A stretch of DNA of 64,000 bases from Flavobacteriales bacterium (GTDB lineage Bacteria > Bacteroidota > Bacteroidia > Flavobacteriales_F > PHOS-HE28), in assembly GCA_044346705.1 (NCBI GenBank), contig JBIIYP010000012.1, forward strand, positions 20,117-84,116, read 5' to 3'. Below are positions 4,640 to 47,390 of the stretch, one piece after another (position 1 is the stretch's first letter; each line of letters begins with the position of its first letter). Under the pieces are notes generated by a model. It saw nothing but the letters and a program-made list of their open reading frames with translations, was not told where the DNA came from and searched no databases. The translations under genes were made by a program, and so were the position numbers.

Positions 4640-7501
<2,862 letters not shown>

Positions 7502-7527
7502 GGGGTCGAGGATTCAAGAAAAGCGGC

Positions 7528-7535
7528 CAAATATA
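7528..7535 (-). promoter_or_regulatory. -7 promoter element TATATTTG for gcvP
   Basis: Exact TAnnTTTG match 27 nt upstream of the gcvP ATG. Confidence 0.7.
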
Positions 7536-7628
7536 CGGGGCACTTTCACCCCTGTTCCTGACCTGTGTGGGGTGAACACATGCGGTCCATTCTTGTTCGT
7601 GTGATCCTTGTCTACATTGGCCCGGCGA

Positions 7629-8249
7629 ATGCGCACGTTACTCCTTCCGCTCCTGTTCCTGCTCCTGCGGCCTGCCCTCTGTCAGGACCGCATCCTGCTC
7701 ATGAACGGACAGGAGCTGAGCGGTCGCGTGGTGGGCCAGAGCACCCTTGAGGTACGCTATCTCGAAACGCACAAGGGGAGCCTGCTGGAGCGCCGGGAGC
7801 CCACGGAAAGCGTGTTCAGTGTCACCGACAGCCTGGGCCTGGAGAAGGTGTGGTACTTCCATGATCCCGCGTTCGGCAATGACCTCACCGTGGACCAGAT
7901 GCGGTGGTACATCAAGGGCGAGCAGGATGCGCGGATCGGCTACAAGCCGCGTGTGCCGGTCTGGGGCGGTTTCCTGCTGGGTGCCGGCCTGGTGGTCGCC
8001 ATGGACCTGGAAGTGAACTCCTTGCTCATTCCGCCGGTCTATGCCGGGCTCATGGCCTGGCCGCGTGTGCATGTGACCCCGGGTTCGGTGCGCGATCCGC
8101 TCATGGAAGGGGATGAGTACTACGCCACGGGTTACTCCGCAGTGGGCCGGCCCAAGCGCGTGGTGAACAGCCTGCTGAGCACCACGGTCGGCGTGGTGGC
8201 GGGGCTGCTCGTGCGGCAGCTCATCATCAACCCGAACCAGAACCCCTAG
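7629..8249 (+). CDS. Hypothetical exported/membrane protein
   Basis: Likely start ATG 7629 (MRTLLLPLLFLLLRPALCQD signal peptide); short beta-rich DRILLMNG domain followed by hydrophobic segments; host-like codon usage. Confidence 0.7.
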   Translation: MRTLLLPLLFLLLRPALCQDRILLMNGQELSGRVVGQSTLEVRYLETHKGSLLERREPTESVFSVTDSLGLEKVWYFHDPAFGNDLTVDQMRWYIKGEQDARIGYKPRVPVWGGFLLGAGLVVAMDLEVNSLLIPPVYAGLMAWPRVHVTPGSVRDPLMEGDEYYATGYSAVGRPKRVVNSLLSTTVGVVAGLLVRQLIINPNQNP

Positions 8250-24995: not shown

Positions 24996-27485
24996 ATGAT
25001 ACGCTGCCTGCGTTTGCTCTTTATCCTGTGCGCTCTCCACGTCCCGTTGGTCCTGTGCGCCCAGACCACGCGTGTCACCGGTGCGGTATCCGATGCGGTG
25101 ACCGGCGAAACGCTGCCCTTCGTGAACGTGGGCTTCGTGGACAGTCGCATCAGTACGAACACCGATCTCGACGGGCAGTACGTGCTCGAGACCTACTACG
25201 CCACCGACAGTATCCGGGTGAGCTGTGTCGGGTACAAGCCGCTCACCAGACCTGTTTTACGGGACAAGGCACAGGTCATCGACCTGAAGCTGCAGCCCGC
25301 TGATGCCGAGCTCACGGAATTGGTGGTGAGGCCTTCGGAGAACAGTGCCTTCTCCATCCTCCGACGCGTGGTGGCCAACAAGCCGGTGAACAACCGCGAG
25401 AAGCTCTCGGCCTACGAGTACGAGGCCTACAACAAGATCGAGTTCGACATCAACGACATCACCGAGGAGTTCAAGCAGAAGAAACTCTTCCAGCCCATCG
25501 CCTTCGTGTTCGAGAACGTGGACAGCAGTGATGCCAAGCCGTACCTGCCCATTTTCATGACCGAGAGCCTGAGCGACCTCTACTTCCGCCAGACGCCCCG
25601 AAAGCGAAGGGAGGTGATCAAGGCCAACAAGGTGAGCGGCATCGAGAATGAAAGTGTGTCGCAGTTCATGGGCGACATGTACCAGAACGTCAACATCTAC
25701 GAGAACTTCCTGGTCATCTTCGGCAAGAACTTCATCAGCCCCATTGCCGATGGGGGCCGCGGCTACTACGATTACTACCTGGTGGACAGTGCCTGGATCG
25801 GGCACAACTGGTGCTACAAGCTCACCTTCGCTCCCAAGCGCGTCCAGGAGCTGGCCTTCGAGGGCGAGATGTGGATCAACGACACCACCTATGCCGTGCG
25901 CCGCATCGAGGCCGGCATCGACGAGGGCGCCAACCTCAACTTCGTACAGGGGTTCTGGGTGAAGCAGGAGTACGAGGAAGTGAGGCCCGAGATCTGGATG
26001 CTCACGCGGGACCAGCTCGTTGTTGACCTGAACGTGGTGCGCGACAAGGGGGATAAGAACACGAACACCGTCCAGGGATTCTACGGGCGGCGCACCGCCA
26101 CCTACCGCGACTTCCTCATCAATGAACCCCGGATGGACGCCTTCTATGAGGGGGCGGACGAGGTGGTGGTGGCCAAGGACCCTGCGGGCGAGACCGAGGC
26201 CTTCTGGGAGGAGAACCGCCATGTGCCGCTCACCGAGAAGGAGGCGAGCATCTACCACATGGTGGACACGATGAAGTCCATCCCGCGCTTCCGCACCTAC
26301 ATCGATGTCATCAGCACCGTGATCACCGGCTATTACAGCAAGGGTGACATCGACTATGGCCCCTATTTCACCGCCTACAGCTTCAATCCGGTGGAAGGGC
26401 ACCGGTTCAGGGTGGGTGGGCGCACCAGTTCAGCCTTCAACAGGAGGCTCGAGTTCGAAGGGTACCTGGCCTATGGGCTCACCGACCAGCAGTTCAAGTA
26501 CAAGTTCGGCGGTCGCGGGTTCGTGAGCAAACAGAACCGCCAGATCCTGGGGCTCTATTACAAGCGCGACATCGAGCAGCTGGGCCAGAGCACCACCGCC
26601 TTCCGGCAGGACAACATCCTCAGCAGTGCCTTCCGGAGCAGTCCCAACGTGAAACTTACCATGGTGGAGGAGTACCGCGCGAACTATGAGCGCGAGTGGT
26701 TCACGGGCTTCACCACCACGGCCATGATGCGCTATCGTACGCTGCTGCCCCGCGGTTCGCTCACGTATGTGAAGTTGATCCCCGACCCCCTGGAGCTCCA
26801 GGTGGTGGACGCCATCCGCACGGCGGAGTTCAGTCTCAACACGCGGTTCGCCTACCACGAGAAGTTCGTGAGCGGTGATTTCGAACGGATCAGCCTGGGC
26901 ACCAAGTGGCCGGCCTTGGAGCTCCACCTCGCCTTCGGCTTGCCCAACCTGGGCAACAGCGAATATGCCTACCAGAAAGTGGTCGGCCATGTGTACCAGA
27001 GGCTGCAGCTCGGCACTGCGGGGTGGATGCGCATCAACGTTGAAGCGGGCAAGCTCTGGGGGGCCTTGCCGTATCCCCTGCTCATCATCCACAGCGGCAA
27101 CGAGACCTTCTATTCGGACGACGCCTCCTTCAACACCATGAATTTCTTCGAGTTCCTCAGCGACCGGTATGGGCAGATCCAGGTGGAGCATCACTTCGAA
27201 GGGCTCTTCTTCAACCGGGTGCCCTTGTTCCGCCGCTTGAAGTGGCGGGAGGTGGTTGTGGGCAAGGCCGTGGCAGGCAGCCTCGACCTGGAGAAGCACC
27301 TGAAGGAAATGCTCCTGTTGCCCGGCATGTACACGTTGAACAGAGGACCCTACATGGAGCTCAGTGCAGGCGTGGAGAACATCTTCAAGGTGCTCCGGGT
27401 CGACGCCATCTGGCGCTTGCGCTACAATGACCACCCGAACACGTCCCCGTTCGTCATACGTTTGAAGCTCTTCATCAACTTCTGA
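24996..27485 (+). CDS. Carboxypeptidase-regulatory-like domain plus DUF5686 outer-membrane protein
   Basis: [17 protein letters not shown]...TDLDGQY...SCVGY (CarboxypepD_reg); [12 protein letters not shown]; C-terminal barrel ending in F; start TTG 24987 or ATG 24996. Confidence 0.85.
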
Positions 27486-28219
27486 TGCTCCGCGCCACCG
27501 ACCTGTTCAAGCGATACAAACGCCGCACGGTGGTGGGGGGCGTGAGCGTGGAAGTGAAGCAGGGCGAGATCGTGGGCCTGCTCGGCCCCAACGGCGCTGG
27601 CAAGACCACTACCTTCTACATGATCGTGGGCCTCATCAAGCCCAACGAAGGCCACATCTTCCTGGACGCCGAGGAGATCACCGACCTGCCCATGTACAAG
27701 CGGGCCCAGCGCGGCATCGGCTACCTGCCCCAGGAGGCCAGCGTGTTCCGCAAGCTCAGCGTGGAGGACAACATCCGCGCGATCCTGGAGATGAGCGACC
27801 TGCCGAAGACCGAGCAGGTGCGAAAGTTGGAGGAACTGCTTGACGAGTTCCACCTGCAGCATGTGCGGAAGAACATGGGCGACGTGCTCAGCGGAGGCGA
27901 ACGCCGACGCACCGAGATCGCCCGGGCCCTGGCCACCGAGCCGAAGTTCATCCTGCTGGACGAGCCCTTCGCAGGCGTGGACCCCATCGCCGTGGAGGAT
28001 ATCCAGGGCATCGTGAGCCAACTGAAGAAACGCAACATCGGTGTGCTCATCACCGACCACAACGTACAAGAAACGCTCAGCATCACCGACCGCGCCTACC
28101 TGCTGTTCGAGGGCAAGATCCTGAAGCAGGGCACCGCCGAAGAGCTTGCTGCGGATGAGACCGTGCGGAAGGTATACCTCGGGAAGAACTTTGAGCTGAG
28201 GAGGGCGAAGACCCAATGA
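27485..28219 (+). CDS. lptB: LPS export ABC transporter ATP-binding protein
   Basis: [73 protein letters not shown]. Confidence 0.97.
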
Positions 28220-28246
28220 GCAATTAGGAATTCCTAATTGCTCATT
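28215..28246. repeat. Perfect 32-bp palindrome built from AATKAGS heptamers between convergent lptB and purS
   Basis: AATGAGCAATTAGGAATTCCTAATTGCTCATT equals its own reverse complement; a further CCTAATTG unit follows. Confidence 0.9.
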
Positions 28247-28573: not shown

Positions 28574-29386
28574 TCAGGACGCGGCCTTCGGGAACAACCT
28601 GCCCCACAACGGGCTCAACACATAGAGCACCAGGATCAGCGGCACCGCCAGGATCCCGTACAGCACGACCAGCACCGCGCCGAGCACTGCCAGCACGTAG
28701 ATCACCTGGTTGCCCCGCCAGCGGAAGTGCTTGAACTTCAGGCCGGGGAGGGGGAGCTCGGAGAGCATGAGGGTGGCTAGACCCAAGGCCGAGATCAGCT
28801 TTGCGAGCGGATCGTAGGAAAGCAACAGAGCCACCTTGTTGATCGAGCCCGAGAATGGCCCGGGATGAACGAGCATGCCCGAACCGATCAGCGCGAGAGA
28901 GATCCAGAACAGCGCGTTCGCTGGTGTCGCAAGGCCCAGAAATCCTGAAGCTTGTCGGGTGTCGATGTTGAATTTGGCAAGTCGCCAGCAGGACGCCACG
29001 GCAATGATGACGGCTGTAAGGGCCGATATCCAGAATGGGTCGCCGAAGAGATCCCCTGACCCTTTCCAGTCATCCCAGGAGCTTGGGAGATAGTCCCGAT
29101 GCAACGAGATCACCTGCTGCAATGCCTTTCCGGGGTGGACCACGGCAATGAACGCCGGCGCCACCCCGAAGCTCACCATGTCCGCCAGGCTGTCCAACTG
29201 GGCGCCGAGGGGAGTGCCGCCGCCCATGGCCCGGGCCGCCAGCCCATCGAATACGTCGAACACCGCCGCAGCGAACACCAGCCAACATGCGGCTGTTAGC
29301 TGTCCTTGGGAGGCCAGAAGAATAGAGGCCACCCCGCACGCTAGGTTCGCGGTCGTGAGCAGGTCGGGGAAGCGGGGGAGGCGCAT
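28574..29386 (-). CDS. pssA: CDP-alcohol phosphatidyltransferase (phosphatidylserine synthase-like)
   Basis: PDLLTTANLACG, FDVFDGLAAR...LGAQLDSLADMVSFGVAPA, WRLAKFNID, FLGLATPA. Confidence 0.88.
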   Translation of the reverse strand: MRLPRFPDLLTTANLACGVASILLASQGQLTAACWLVFAAAVFDVFDGLAARAMGGGTPLGAQLDSLADMVSFGVAPAFIAVVHPGKALQQVISLHRDYLPSSWDDWKGSGDLFGDPFWISALTAVIIAVASCWRLAKFNIDTRQASGFLGLATPANALFWISLALIGSGMLVHPGPFSGSINKVALLLSYDPLAKLISALGLATLMLSELPLPGLKFKHFRWRGNQVIYVLAVLGAVLVVLYGILAVPLILVLYVLSPLWGRLFPKAAS

Positions 29387-43577: not shown

Positions 43578-46064
43578 ATGATGAGAACGTGGTTGACGAT
43601 CCTGCTGGCCGCCTTCGCTGGCCTGCTCCAGGCCCAGGTGCCCGGCTCGGTGGCCGCTGAGGACCCCGTGAAGTGGTCCATCAGCATGGTGAAGGTGGAG
43701 GAGGGTGCGTGGGACGTCATCTTCCGCGCCGACATCGAGCACGGCTGGTACGTTTACTCCCAGCAGAGCTTTGGTGACATGGGGCCCATTCCCACCACCA
43801 TTGTGTTCGACACACTGGCCCATGCTACCACGAGCGGACCCTCCATTGAGTCCGGCGAGAAGGTGATCGAGGGGCTTGACCCGAATTTCGACGACATCAA
43901 GGTGAAGAAGTTCAAGGGCTACGCGCTCTTCACCCAACGCCTGAAGGTCATCGACCCCGCGAAGCCGATCACAGGGCGCCTGGACTATCAGACGTGTGAC
44001 GATAGCAAGTGCATATTCCCCGATCCGATGTACTTCCGCGTCACCCTGAGCGCGGACAAGGGCGAGTTCGCGGCGCTGCCGTTCAAGGGCGATGCCGCTG
44101 CGGTCAACGCCCCGCCCGCAGAGGAGGAACCGGTGACCTGGTCACTGGCCACGGAGAAGGTGAAGGATGGCCTGTGGCGTTTCCGGTTCACGGCCACGGT
44201 GCAGGACGGCTGGGCCATCTACTCCCAGGAGAGCTTCGGTGACGGTCCGATCCCCACGAGCATGGTGCTGGACAGTACGGTGGCCCATGCGCACTTCGTG
44301 GGAAAGGCCACGGAAGAGGGCAAGGACATGCACGAGGGCATGGACGACATGTTCGGCATCAAGGTCCGCAAGTTCAAGCACACCGTCACCTTCGTGCAGG
44401 AGGTCCAGGTGACGGATGAGGCGAAGGACATCACCGGCGTGGTGAACTTCATGACCTGCGATGACAGCAAGTGCATCTTCCCAGATCCGCCGCCGCCCTT
44501 CACGGTGAACCTGGCCACCGGGGTGATCTCCATCGGTTCCAAGACCATGGCGCCCGGTGGCGAGTGCCGGTACAAGCTGAACACGGTGGACCTGAACGCC
44601 CCGGTGGTGAAGAGCACCGGATCGGACGAGCAGGAAGTGCGCGGGTCGGCCTCGCTGTGGCGGATCTTCTTCCTCGGTTTCCTCGGTGGCTTGGTGGCGC
44701 TGCTCACGCCCTGTGTGTTCCCCATGATCCCGCTCACGGTGAGCTTCTTCACCAAGGGCAGCGAGGACAAGGCGAAGGGCCTGAAGAACGCGCTCACCTA
44801 CGGCGGCTTCATCCTCGGCATCTACCTGCTCTTCAGCCTGCCCTTCCACGTGCTGGGCTCGGTGAACGCGGAGATCTTCAACGAGATCAGCACCAACCCC
44901 TGGCTCAACGTTTTCTTCTTCGTGATCTTCCTGGTCTTCGCGGTGAGCTTCTTCGGCTACTTCGAGATCACGCTCCCGAGCAGCTGGGTGAACAGCATGG
45001 ACCAGAAGGCCTCGAAGTTCGGTGGCCTCATCGGCATCTTCTTCATGGCGCTCACCCTGGCGCTCGTGTCCTTCAGCTGCACGGGACCGATCCTTGGTTC
45101 ATTGCTCGCAGGAGCGCTCACCGCGGATGGTGGTGCCTGGCAGTTGACCGCGGGTCTCGGTGGTTTCGGCATGGCCCTCGCGCTTCCTTTCGCGCTCTTC
45201 GCCCTCTTCCCCAGCTGGCTCAATAGCCTGCCCCGCAGCGGCAGCTGGCTCAACAGTGTGAAGGTGGTGCTCGGCTTCGCCGAAGTGGCGCTCGCGTTCA
45301 AGTTCCTCAGCAACGCCGATCTGGTGAAGCAATGGATGATCGTGCCCTACGAACTCTTCATGGTCGTGTGGGTGCTCTGTGCCCTGGGCATCACGTTGTA
45401 CCTCTTCGGCCTCATCAAGTTCCCCCATGACAGCCCCGTGAAGTCGCGGAGCACCGTGCGATGGAGTTTCATCGCGCTCTTTACAGCGGCCACCTTCTAC
45501 CTGGCCTTCGGCCTGCGTGTGGATAGCAAGGCGGGCACCTTCACGCCCATGGCGCTGATGAGCGGATTGGCTCCTCCCGTGGGCTACAGTTGGATCCTGC
45601 CCAAGAAGGCCGAAGCGTTCCACGACCTCGATGAAGCCCTTGCCCATGCCCGTGAGGTGGGCAAGCCCGTGATGATCGACTTCACCGGTTGGGCCTGTGT
45701 GAACTGCCGCAAGATGGAGGAGCACGTGTGGCCTGAACAAGGGGTGAAGGAGTTGATCGAGAACGACTATGTGCTCGTGTCGCTCTACGTGGACGACAAG
45801 CGTGAACTGCCGAAGGAGGAACAGCACGAGTACATCACCTGCACCGGCAAGCAGAAGCTGATCGTGACCAAGGGCAACAAGTGGAGCACGGTGCAGCTGG
45901 AGACTTTCGTGATCAGCAGCCAGCCCTACTACGCGCTGTTGAGCCCGGAAGGCAAGCTCCTCACCGATCCGGTCGGCTACACCCCGGATGTGCCCGAGTA
46001 CAAGGCCTTCCTGGAGCGCGGCCTCGAAGGCATGCGCGTGCTGAACCAGCAGGCCAGTCGCTAA
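43578..46064 (+). CDS. dsbD: Thiol:disulfide interchange protein DsbD with a duplicated N-domain
   Basis: Two N-domains (YQTCDDSKCIFP, FMTCDDSKCIFP); TM domain LLTPCVFPMIP and SFSCTGPILG; thioredoxin domain DFTGWACVNCRKME. Confidence 0.92.
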   Translation: MMRTWLTILLAAFAGLLQAQVPGSVAAEDPVKWSISMVKVEEGAWDVIFRADIEHGWYVYSQQSFGDMGPIPTTIVFDTLAHATTSGPSIESGEKVIEGLDPNFDDIKVKKFKGYALFTQRLKVIDPAKPITGRLDYQTCDDSKCIFPDPMYFRVTLSADKGEFAALPFKGDAAAVNAPPAEEEPVTWSLATEKVKDGLWRFRFTATVQDGWAIYSQESFGDGPIPTSMVLDSTVAHAHFVGKATEEGKDMHEGMDDMFGIKVRKFKHTVTFVQEVQVTDEAKDITGVVNFMTCDDSKCIFPDPPPPFTVNLATGVISIGSKTMAPGGECRYKLNTVDLNAPVVKSTGSDEQEVRGSASLWRIFFLGFLGGLVALLTPCVFPMIPLTVSFFTKGSEDKAKGLKNALTYGGFILGIYLLFSLPFHVLGSVNAEIFNEISTNPWLNVFFFVIFLVFAVSFFGYFEITLPSSWVNSMDQKASKFGGLIGIFFMALTLALVSFSCTGPILGSLLAGALTADGGAWQLTAGLGGFGMALALPFALFALFPSWLNSLPRSGSWLNSVKVVLGFAEVALAFKFLSNADLVKQWMIVPYELFMVVWVLCALGITLYLFGLIKFPHDSPVKSRSTVRWSFIALFTAATFYLAFGLRVDSKAGTFTPMALMSGLAPPVGYSWILPKKAEAFHDLDEALAHAREVGKPVMIDFTGWACVNCRKMEEHVWPEQGVKELIENDYVLVSLYVDDKRELPKEEQHEYITCTGKQKLIVTKGNKWSTVQLETFVISSQPYYALLSPEGKLLTDPVGYTPDVPEYKAFLERGLEGMRVLNQQASR

Positions 46065-46157: not shown

Positions 46158-46775
46158 GTGAAGAGGATGGAGGTGGAAGAGAGGCTACCTGAAGAGGCGA
46201 TCGCCGCACGGACCTGCCTTGCCGGCAGGCAGGTCCATTGGGTCCGCAGCCAGAAGGTGATGTTGGATGCGGACCTGGCGCGCCTTTACGGGGTCCCGAC
46301 CAAGGAGCTCAACCTCAAGGTGAAGCGGCACCTGGAGCGTTTCCCAGCGGACTTCATGTTCCAGTTGACCGATGATGAATGGAGCGGTTTGAGGTTTCAA
46401 GTTGAAACCTCAAAGGGCCGGGGAGGTCGTCGTTACCCACCCTATGCATTCACCGAACATGGCGTCCTGATGTCGCCGACGCGCCAAAGCCGCTTTGGCG
46501 ACGGCGCGCTCAGCAGCGTGTTGAACAGCGAACGGGCCATCGCCGTCAACACCTGCCTGTCCGGCAGGCAGGTCCGCATCATGCGGGTCTTCGTGCGCAT
46601 GAACCGCCTGTTGCAGAGCGACCTGGAGCTTCAGCTGCGGATGGAGCGCATGGAAAGTCGCCAGGGCCGGATGGAAGAGGACCTCGGCGGCTTGTTCGAA
46701 GCGGTGAAGCAGCTGATGGAGGAGCCCGGTGCGGAGCGCAGGCGGCTGGGCTATAAAGGAGGAGACACGATCTGA
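46158..46775 (+). CDS. ORF6N (KilA-N-like) DNA-binding domain protein with three in-frame palindromic insertions
   Basis: QKVMLDADLARLYGV, ERFPADFMFQLT, GGRRYPPYAFTEHGV, LSSVLNSERAI, IMRVFV; C-terminal coiled coil and RRRLGY. Confidence 0.9.
   Translation: MKRMEVEERLPEEAIAARTCLAGRQVHWVRSQKVMLDADLARLYGVPTKELNLKVKRHLERFPADFMFQLTDDEWSGLRFQVETSKGRGGRRYPPYAFTEHGVLMSPTRQSRFGDGALSSVLNSERAIAVNTCLSGRQVRIMRVFVRMNRLLQSDLELQLRMERMESRQGRMEEDLGGLFEAVKQLMEEPGAERRRLGYKGGDTI
46213..46233. repeat. 21-nt REP-like palindrome inside ORF6N (copy 1)
   Basis: CCTGCCTTGCCGGCAGGCAGG; removing it restores ATC (Ile) in IAAR-I-HWVRSQKVML. Confidence 0.85.
46473..46508. repeat. 36-nt REP-like hairpin insertion inside ORF6N
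   Basis: Contains CGCCAAAGC-C-GCTTTGGCG; removing it restores TEHGVLM-LSSVLNS. Confidence 0.8.
46552..46572. repeat. 21-nt REP-like palindrome inside ORF6N (copy 2)
   Basis: CCTGCCTGTCCGGCAGGCAGG; removing it restores ATC (Ile) in AIAVN-I-RIMRVFV. Confidence 0.85.
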
Positions 46776-46790
46776 CGCATCTTTGGAACC

Positions 46791-47390
46791 ATGAGCCACG
46801 ACCGCATCCGCACCCATTTCGAAGAGGCCGCCAGCGTGCTGCAACGCTTCCTGGCCGATCCGGAGAACCTCACCAACGTGGAGCGCGCCTCCGCGTTCAT
46901 GAGCTACTGCCTGAAGCAGGGAGCGAAGGTGATCAGCTGCGGGAACGGCGGCAGCATGTGCGATGCCATGCACTTCGCGGAAGAGCTCACCGGCCGCTAC
47001 CGTGACGACCGGCCGCCGATCGCAGCCATGTCCATCAGCGATCCCAGCCACCTGACCTGTGTGGGCAACGACCATGGCTTCGAGCACGTGTTCGCACGGT
47101 TCGTGGAAGCGCACGGGCGCGAAGGCGATGTGCTCCTGGCCATCAGCACCAGCGGCAACAGCCCGAACGTGCTGCGCGCTGCGGAGGTGGCACGCGAGAA
47201 GGGCATGCACGTGATCGGCCTCACGGGCAAGGATGGGGGGCGCCTTGCCGACCTGTGCACCGTGGAGGTGCGGGTGCCCCATGACGGCTATGCCGACCGC
47301 ATCCAGGAGGTGCACATCAAGGTGATCCACGCCTGGATCGACCACATCGAGCGCGATCTTGCCGCGCCCCGCCGTTCCGAGCAGGCCTGA
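46791..47390 (+). CDS. gmhA: D-sedoheptulose 7-phosphate isomerase
   Basis: [63 protein letters not shown]. Confidence 0.93.

Follow-up and report, generated by a model that had tools for sequence, protein, structure and literature searches.

The 64,000-nt stretch of Flavobacteriales DNA analyzed here (the window; contig JBIIYP010000012.1, assembly GCA_044346705.1) contains a gene encoding an ORF6N-domain protein, and the coding sequence of this gene carries three short hairpin-forming inserts of 21, 36, and 21 nt. The gene is flanked by genes for a DsbD-like and a SIS-domain protein (Table 1). While the initial annotation had described it as a stand-alone gene, the order DsbD-ORF6N-SIS-Mg-chelatase/ComM is conserved on the orthologue contigs (L012-L015). 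Its likely true start is an ATG at 46167, resulting in a protein of 202 aa. The usual length of the orthologues is 176 aa, which holds for almost all close ones among the thousands of homologues obtained from a collection of 5.8 billion proteins. The initial annotation had further proposed that the inserts encode foreign peptides whose deletion restores the motifs of the family. Both proposals were confirmed: the inserts are exact indels relative to orthologous genes, and the protein alignment without them reads AAR-I-HW, GVLM-LSSVL, and AVN-I-RIM. The inserts belong to dispersed hairpin families and do not represent ancestral peptides.

Inserts 1 and 3 are variants, lengthened by one base in the loop, of a perfect 20-nt palindrome, CCTGCCTGCCGGCAGGCAGG (hereafter referred to as PAL). 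Insert 2 belongs to a family unrelated to PAL (family B), which resembles repetitive extragenic palindromic (REP) sequences. For an empty-site comparison, the window DNA was aligned with three syntenic orthologue contigs, one lacking inserts (L012), one with insert 1 only (L013), and one with insert 2 only (L014). Insert 1 is an exact indel compared to L012 and L014 and is present in L013; insert 2, with the junctions ATG/TCGCC...GGCGCG/CTC (slashes mark the junctions), is an exact indel compared to L012 and L013 and is present with two substitutions in L014; insert 3 is an exact indel compared to all three contigs. No target-site duplication was observed at any of the three sites. By protein alignment and tblastn, insert 1 encodes TCLAGRQ (7 aa) and changes the following Ile to Val, insert 2 encodes SPTRQSRFGDGA (12 aa), and insert 3 encodes TCLSGRQ (7 aa), read with the altered flanking codon as TCLSGRQ(V); the stretches of the window protein that span the inserts are AARTCLAGRQVHW, LMSPTRQSRFGDGALS, and VNTCLSGRQVRIM. 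The predicted folds of inserts 1, 2, and 3 have energies of -11.3, -16.0, and -10.4 kcal/mol, with z scores against shuffled sequences of -3.35, -2.69, and -3.64, respectively. The window has no copies of the 21-nt motif other than inserts 1 and 3 (0 expected in shuffles), and the 36-nt core occurs once.

The inserts also occur singly in other alleles. P0003 (L013; Logan SRR28411067) carries insert 1 only and P0005 (L014; two other SRA runs) insert 2 only. P0002 and P0003 are identical at 238 of 238 positions 3' of insert 1, yet differ in the presence of this insert, and the window allele and P0005 have insert 2 in common along with 44/44 identical flanking bases. Such mosaic alleles fit recent gain, precise loss, or recombination. 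A clear orthologue was found in just 11 other congeners, and all 11 species-representative orthologues of the genus are insert-free, indicating that the insertions are recent. We consider it probable that two tiny mobile hairpin families struck the ORF6N gene three times and that only the frame-preserving outcomes survived.

Table 1. Positions of the ORF6N genes, hairpin elements, and associated loci. Entries without a contig or locus name refer to the window; slashes mark insertion junctions.
Feature	Position	Strand	Description
ORF6N-domain gene	46158..46775	+	Pfam PF10543, E=1.6e-29; 205 aa from GTG
Insert 1, 21-nt PAL variant	46213..46233	+	CCTGCCT-T-GCCGGCAGGCAGG; junction CGGA/CCTGCCTTGCCGGCAGGCAGG/TCCA
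Insert 2, 36-nt hairpin, family B	46473..46508	+	ATG/TCGCCGACGCGCCAAAGCCGCTTTGGCGACGGCGCG/CTC; boundary slides by 1 nt
Insert 3, 21-nt PAL variant	46552..46572	+	CCTGCCTG-T-CCGGCAGGCAGG; junction AACA/CCTGCCTGTCCGGCAGGCAGG/TCCG
Intrinsic hairpin, not an insertion	46389..46413	+	TTGAGGTTTC-AAGTT-GAAACCTCAA; codes LRFQVETSK; 10-bp stem, 5-nt loop
Second ORF6N gene	C32, ~28790-29350		outside the window; Pfam E=3.9e-26
20-nt perfect PAL in second ORF6N gene	C32:29131-29150		at AIAVS/IHII, homologous to insert 3 site AIAVN/IRIM
Third-family double hairpin in second ORF6N gene	C32:29045-29066		in frame; peptide CGFAKPSAKQGR
ORF6N gene with three hairpin insertions	L189, JAEUSY010000061.1, ~7400-8000		unrelated Flavobacteriales metagenome-assembled genome
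Family-B hairpin in methylmalonyl-CoA mutase gene	L023, G004:C7, ~108285		36 nt, in frame; opposite orientation
PAL/GIY-YIG/tRNA cassette	L132		WWE3; tRNA-Lys
PAL/GIY-YIG/tRNA cassette	L213		tRNA-Leu
PAL/GIY-YIG/tRNA cassette	L201		tRNA-Gly
PAL/GIY-YIG/tRNA cassette	L054		G024; tRNA-Arg
PAL/GIY-YIG/tRNA cassette	L216, C234:36500-38200		congener G006; tRNA-Leu(CAA)
RAYT (REP-associated tyrosine transposase)-like Y1_Tnp gene	C70:46593-46928		REP family CGACCC..GGGTCG
RAYT-like Y1_Tnp gene	C62:36605-36826		REP family CGAGCGTCCACGCTCG
RAYT-like Y1_Tnp gene	C37:37514-37735		REP family CACAGGCGTCCCGCCTGTG
DsbD-like gene	43578-46064		neighbor of ORF6N gene
SIS-domain gene	46791-47390		neighbor of ORF6N gene
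Mixed hairpin/PAL array	L010, C79:1-7000
DUF559 endonuclease gene	C79:4451-4858		surrounded by mixed arrays
Flavo-1 sub-threshold match	L007 194-298 (C37)		RF01705
Flavo-1 sub-threshold match	L008 8885-8964 (C36)		RF01705
21-nt PAL	C37:219-239		in variable apical region of the L007 match
Tandem mini GIY-YIG genes	L218, C24:43800-45400		85 and 81 aa
AT-rich perfect palindrome, 32 nt	28215-28246		AATGAGCAATTAGGAATTCCTAATTGCTCATT; at end of gene 27485-28219 (+); unusual for a 62% GC genome

PAL length inside and outside genes

Including near variants, about 50 copies of PAL occur in the 3.99-Mb genome, which has a GC content of 62%. Genes were called using codon statistics trained on long open reading frames (ORFs), yielding 3148 genes and a coding fraction of 87%. 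All nine genic copies (9/9) have a length of 21 nt, and all three codon phases are occupied. The 41 intergenic copies comprise 28 of 20 nt, four of 21 nt, four of 19 nt, and five of 18 nt. Not one of the 28 copies of 20 nt is located within an intact gene, and the distribution of the 21- and 20-nt forms differs significantly by location (Fisher p = 2e-6). In addition to ORF6N, which is hit twice, the genic hosts encode MnmA, a Glu/Leu/Phe/Val-dehydrogenase-like (GDH-like) protein, methylmalonyl-CoA epimerase, a DNA methyltransferase, the N-terminus of an aldehyde dehydrogenase, a formyltransferase-like protein, and one other gene product. With these seven other genic copies, ORF6N is not the sole gene affected. 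Identical copies of the 21-mer of insert 3 were found in three further genes of the genome under study and also in other genomes. Two of the other genic copies were confirmed to be genuine insertions: the peptide inserted into the GDH-like protein, PASPAGR, is missing from 12/12 genus orthologues (DNA AAA/21 nt/CGC, no duplication), and an alignment of MnmA with PDB 9hln shows a 7-residue gap at the insert. A genome of another family with a GC content of 43% and 96 PAL copies (G024) obeys the same 20/21-nt rule: all 15 sampled 20-mers were intergenic or upstream of start codons, and 3-4 of the 7 sampled 21-mers were located within ORFs.

The occurrence of 21 nt in genes and of 20 nt outside indicates that frame preservation is a matter of selection, or survivorship, and not of insertion in frame. 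PAL insertion is not intrinsically in frame, and selection retains only variants of a length divisible by three (3n) in genes. An element system that inserts in frame, as put forward initially, is therefore not in accordance with the data, as the dominant form has 20 nt and resides outside intact genes and a 20-nt copy in the second ORF6N gene on C32 breaks the frame. The same rule bears on the suggestion that the mature protein lacks the peptides because the hairpins are removed or skipped, be it through excision from the DNA, processing of the RNA, or bypass by the ribosome. The strength of the hairpins, the interruption of conserved helices by two of them, and the near-identical alleles that differ precisely by insert 1 would suit this suggestion. 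However, the length of an insert would then be irrelevant, yet the genic copies are 3n throughout and 20-mers are absent from genes, here as well as in G024, and the C32 copy leaves two out-of-frame halves. We thus regard removal or bypass as very improbable.

PAL was also considered as a MITE (miniature inverted-repeat transposable element) or as the joined ends of an insertion sequence (IS) or MITE. This was rejected since no duplication was present at four sites with known empty sites and isolated 10-nt PAL half-sites occur in the genome at background level only. No match to the inserts was obtained in Rfam. Two matches to the Flavo-1 RNA motif stayed below the gathering threshold (35-38 bits compared to 42), and a 21-nt PAL falls within one of them (Table 1). 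Further, there are intergenic arrays that combine CCCCTCCTCGTCGAGGAGGGG hairpins and PAL variants (CCTGCCTGCCGGTAGGCAGG); such arrays are found in L010, in L011 (C35), and at the ends of C72 and C10, surround a gene for a DUF559 endonuclease, and coincide with contig ends.

Candidate mobilizing enzymes

A scan for the exact 20-mer in 185,579 species genomes matched at least 120 genome records from many phyla, with about 0.5 expected by chance. Among the matches listed were records from Patescibacteria, Omnitrophota, Bacteroidota, Planctomycetota, Bdellovibrionota, Gamma- and Deltaproteobacteria, Nitrospirota-like groups, Chloroflexota, and others, with a local GC content of 30-72% and unrelated flanks. 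PAL was also present in isolate genomes, e.g., those of Winogradskyella echinorum KCTC 22026 and Flagellimonas yonaguniensis. Among 31 relatives its distribution is patchy: five genomes contain 31, 21, 12, 96, and 23 copies, while most congeners have 0-3. Of the REP-like nature that had been assigned to the inserts, the part concerning dispersed REP-like hairpins was upheld; the 21-nt element is, however, not a lineage-specific REP but a version of a 20-nt palindrome that is pan-bacterial. The presence of one 20-mer in assemblies of so many unrelated organisms is also what an assembly or library artefact, e.g., a palindromic adapter or a chimeric junction, might produce. Such an artefact is very unlikely because the same inserts occur singly in independent assemblies. 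As the length of PAL tracks its location, the inserts are inherited by orthologues in independent SRA, JGI, and ENA samples, the 20-mer occurs in isolates, the flanks are diverse, and a tRNA/GIY-YIG context recurs consistently, we consider its probability to be negligible.

This context is a cassette in which a partial tRNA copy interrupted by PAL is directly followed by a gene of about 85-95 aa encoding a GIY-YIG domain only and then by the intact tRNA. PAL interrupts the D-loop, the anticodon loop, or the T-loop of the partial copies. Five such cassettes were identified (Table 1), this arrangement being found in several phyla, and additional partial tRNA pieces in L216 and L054 carry PAL variants within the T-loop. 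When the ORFs at 120 loci among the matches listed were compared all against all, with adjacency defined as PAL within 32 nt of or inside the open frame, GIY-YIG genes were the sole adjacent ORFs that recurred at PAL (L132, L213, and L201). We read the 21-mers in ORF6N as solo, non-autonomous derivatives of this GIY-YIG/tRNA/PAL system, the enzyme being what we infer. DUF559 endonucleases were rejected as partners of PAL based on a weak correlation of gene and PAL counts and on the lack of adjacency in other genomes and at the 120 loci. In a separate locus, L218, tandem mini GIY-YIG genes lie beside an apparent tRNA 3' fragment, with neither PAL nor an intact tRNA in the vicinity. Literature searches with the PAL sequence and the insert peptides yielded unrelated zebrafish papers only, matched via a 12-nt substring, and those on GIY-YIG, tRNA, and palindromes mitochondrial papers only; no published description of the cassette was found.

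The core of family B is single-copy in the genome under study and dispersed in congeners (G013 with five copies, G012, G004, and G016). There, the copies are mostly intergenic and reside inside longer repeats with GTAG/CGTC-type feet; CGTC is located beside the stem, and GTAG occurs in the congener copies. One copy in G004 is inserted in frame in the gene for methylmalonyl-CoA mutase, adding 12 aa (APSPKRLWRIGD), and the corresponding site is empty in the genome under study (FLSSKGSPT). In its behavior, family B resembles a classical REP, and it may plausibly have a RAYT partner.

As the initial annotation had noted, the window contains no candidate mobilizing enzyme, and it had proposed a search for RAYT or other HUH nucleases flanked by the elements. 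If all three inserts were classical REPs, or REPINs (REP doublets forming hairpins), they would be moved by a RAYT (HUH Y1) encoded elsewhere in the genome. Seven matches to Y1_Tnp were obtained in this genome, three of which are flanked by REP families of their own. HUH transposition proceeds without target duplication, and intragenic REPs are documented in the relevant passages of PMC3733652, so that such an origin would also be conceivable given the tags of family B. However, PAL ends lack GTAG and CGTC, and no Y1_Tnp gene in this genome is flanked by PAL or family B. G006 has 21 PAL copies and no Y1_Tnp match, the numbers of Y1_Tnp matches and PAL copies are hardly correlated (rho = 0.11), and five loci physically link PAL to GIY-YIG genes and tRNA fragments. 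A common RAYT-dependent origin of all three inserts is therefore quite unlikely, and RAYT was rejected as the mobilizer of PAL after the Y1_Tnp search of the 31 genomes and inspection of the flanks in the genome under study, where RAYT-like genes are accompanied by other REPs. Some putative REPs of the GTCGACCC family are located inside called genes (C15, C85, and C90).

ORF6N genes as a hotspot of insertion

The genome contains two ORF6N genes only, and both carry inserts, five in total. The second gene shares about 44% protein identity with that of the window. Its 20-nt PAL is located at the codon boundary homologous to insert 3, with a junction of AGCA^TCCA compared to AACA^TCCG, and frameshifts the gene; in-silico deletion gives back a single ORF. 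The other insert, in frame, is a double hairpin of a third family with the core CTTCGCGAAGCCTTCGGCGAAG, a member of which is present in opposite orientation at another site in orthologue P0027. Similarly, three hairpins are inserted in the ORF6N gene of L189, namely an in-frame 21-nt PAL (PAYRTGR), a frameshifting 20-nt PAL, and, close to the C-terminus, a hairpin of the third family; this is the one PAL locus located within an ORF6N gene among the 120 loci of other genomes among the matches listed. In L100, PAL is located about 70 nt downstream of an ORF6N gene. Of the 10 genic or gene-disrupting PAL copies, three fall in ORF6N DNA, which makes up approximately 1.2 kb of the roughly 3.5 Mb of coding sequence; a rough estimate of the chance probability is ~5e-9. 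ORF6N genes are a real insertion hotspot, as had been suspected for the window gene: both paralogues carry inserts, and relatives have other inserts at other sites.

In addition to the inserts, the ORF6N coding sequence contains an intrinsic stem-loop (Table 1) that is kept in all orthologues and paralogues examined (LRSQFATSK region). Across 32 distinct ORF6N sequences from the genus, orthologues and paralogues alike, 95.3% of the 320 stem cells are paired, and compensatory double changes occur in 8 of the 10 pairs. None of 500 shuffles reached this value, and slid controls were paired at 25-44%. The synonymous third position of a Ser codon covaries with the middle base of an Ala/Val/Gly/Glu codon three codons downstream; the constraint thus acts on the nucleic acid and drives the amino-acid covariation. 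No match to this hairpin was obtained in Rfam. The intrinsic hairpin may underlie the hotspot.

Insertions may, alternatively, accumulate in ORF6N by tolerance only, i.e., the gene would be dispensable or decaying and random hairpins would not be purged, with no targeting of the gene. P0003 has a premature TAG at alignment column 565 that removes about the last 17 residues, a sign of relaxed constraint on ORF6N in this clade; the genes on C32 and in L189 are frameshifted; in the window protein a nearly invariant Gly is replaced by Ser (RGQ to RSQ); and 20 of 61 congeners have no match at E <= 1e-30. The AlphaFold prediction of the insert-bearing protein was poor (pLDDT 55), that of an insert-free orthologue was usable (pLDDT 81.8), and inserts 2 and 3 map within confidently predicted helices of the latter. 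Based on the stop in P0003, the broken genes, the Gly to Ser exchange, and the helix interruptions, dispensability surely contributes to the hotspot. The involvement of three different hairpin families also argues against the specificity of a single enzyme. Tolerance by itself is, however, hard to reconcile with the independent insertion of a 20-nt and a 21-nt PAL at the homologous boundary of strongly diverged paralogues, with the position of both window PAL inserts, as read off the sequence, at A^TCC with GC(G/C)ATCGCCG upstream at equal distance, and with the density of PAL copies in ORF6N and their recurrence in the ORF6N gene of L189. The same-site insertions and the common A^TCC context indicate some targeting of ORF6N besides dispensability, and we consider tolerance only a possible but somewhat unlikely explanation.

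We therefore return to repeated strikes by two mobile hairpin families. PAL would move in trans as a hairpin, either single-stranded or as a cruciform, by means of a structure-specific nuclease, for which the mini GIY-YIG protein would be the prime suspect. The length variants of 18-21 nt would originate at the hairpin tip. Purifying selection would purge non-3n insertions from genes, and the survivors would be translated as peptides of 7 and 12 residues. ORF6N would collect insertions as it is dispensable and as its DNA attracts them, possibly through the intrinsic hairpin and possibly through the GC(G/C)ATCGCCG-N6-A^TCC context. A more far-reaching version appears doubtful to us. In it, PAL would be a self-contained, pan-bacterial mobile hairpin of about 20 nt moved in trans by domain-only GIY-YIG nucleases at home in tRNA genes, ORF6N would be a preferred secondary target via its stem-loop, and the ORF6N protein, the intrinsic hairpin, or both might even be functional partners that recruit or regulate hairpin elements.

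Several observations weigh against the main interpretation. The putative role of GIY-YIG as the mobilizer of PAL is supported by genomic adjacency only. In the genome under study, no PAL copy adjoins a tRNA or any of the three mini GIY-YIG genes, and across the 31 genomes the PAL copy number does not correlate significantly with the number of mini GIY-YIG genes (rho = 0.15); the correlation with DUF559 counts is slightly better (rho = 0.37, p = 0.04). Outside ORF6N, the target preference of PAL is weak: in 55 of 72 cases a pyrimidine occupies the first flank position going outward, a figure inflated by array copies. The gene calls underlying the length rule were made by a simple caller of our own and not by a standard annotator, and it is from this rule alone that we infer that the inserts are translated and not excised or bypassed. 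Since two inserts interrupt predicted helices, the window protein may be crippled by them. Finally, the presence or absence of inserts among alleles could stem from recombination rather than from insertion or excision.

Comparison with known systems

The findings bear on several subjects. The exactness of the insertions, the near-identical alleles with empty sites, and the occupation of three phases are evidence that a 20/21-nt palindrome is mobile on its own; if this is true, it would be among the smallest mobile DNAs known. The occurrence of 20 nt outside genes, 21 nt inside, and 20 nt in a broken paralogue represents a natural experiment on selection. A palindrome found across phyla and in GIY-YIG/tRNA cassettes is connected with in-frame peptide insertions in housekeeping proteins (MnmA, the GDH-like protein, methylmalonyl-CoA epimerase, and methylmalonyl-CoA mutase); if the link to GIY-YIG holds, solo PAL insertions could serve to study target choice and rate of the element. 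The ORF6N coding hairpin is a case of nucleic-acid structure constraining protein sequence. Likewise, if the link to GIY-YIG holds, annotators should be prepared for 7-residue peptides of the PAGRQ/LPxxQAG type in otherwise conserved proteins.

The likeness to Rickettsia palindromic elements (RPEs) drawn in the initial annotation is apt, as in both cases the inserts are palindromic and in frame and the ORF stays open. RPEs have a size of about 100-150 bp, are not known outside Rickettsia, and are reported to be located on the protein surface, in contrast to inserts of 21 and 36 nt in Flavobacteriales, two of three of which interrupt predicted helices. RPEs (Ogata et al. 2000, as cited in PMC3733652 and PMC3184786) have been described as in-frame palindromic insertions in coding genes. 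Intragenic REPs tagged by GTAG or CGTC have been catalogued in several phyla, with some ORFs hit twice, according to the corresponding passages of Di Nocera et al. 2013 (PMC3733652). These REPs share with the inserts the character of GC-rich palindromes of 20-40 bp that are mostly intergenic and in a minority of cases reside in ORFs and encode short peptides, the repeated strikes on some ORFs, and the coexistence of several families per genome. PAL differs in that it lacks a GTAG/CGTC tag, a feature in which family B may agree with REPs, in that no RAYT partner was found, and in that its exact sequence is kept across phyla, REP families being specific to a species or genus. The split into 20 nt in intergenic and 21 nt in genic positions is a feature of PAL that does not appear in those passages (PMC3733652) for intragenic REPs.

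Compared to the cassettes of mini GIY-YIG gene, partial tRNA, and palindrome, the ORF6N inserts carry PAL with one loop base added, with exact 20-mers elsewhere in the genome, and they are solo, of 21 nt, and located in a coding gene with no nuclease gene or tRNA nearby. The cassette arrangement was found in L216, L054, L132, L213, and L201 and not at the ORF6N locus or anywhere else in the genome under study. With the 'peel and paste' transposition of IS200/IS605 elements PAL shares the dependence on a hairpin, the lack of a target-site duplication, and the possibility of precise excision, and transposition of this kind would account for a preference for DNA with exposed single strands. In contrast to IS200/IS605, PAL is not linked to a TnpA or RAYT gene and has no fixed tetranucleotide target, and the 20-nt element is the hairpin itself. 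As RPEs and intragenic REPs are known, in-frame palindromic insertion as a general phenomenon is not new. What is distinctive here is the tiny size of the element, its identity across phyla, the absence of tags and RAYT, the link to GIY-YIG genes and tRNAs, the partition into 20 and 21 nt, and the recurrent targeting of ORF6N.

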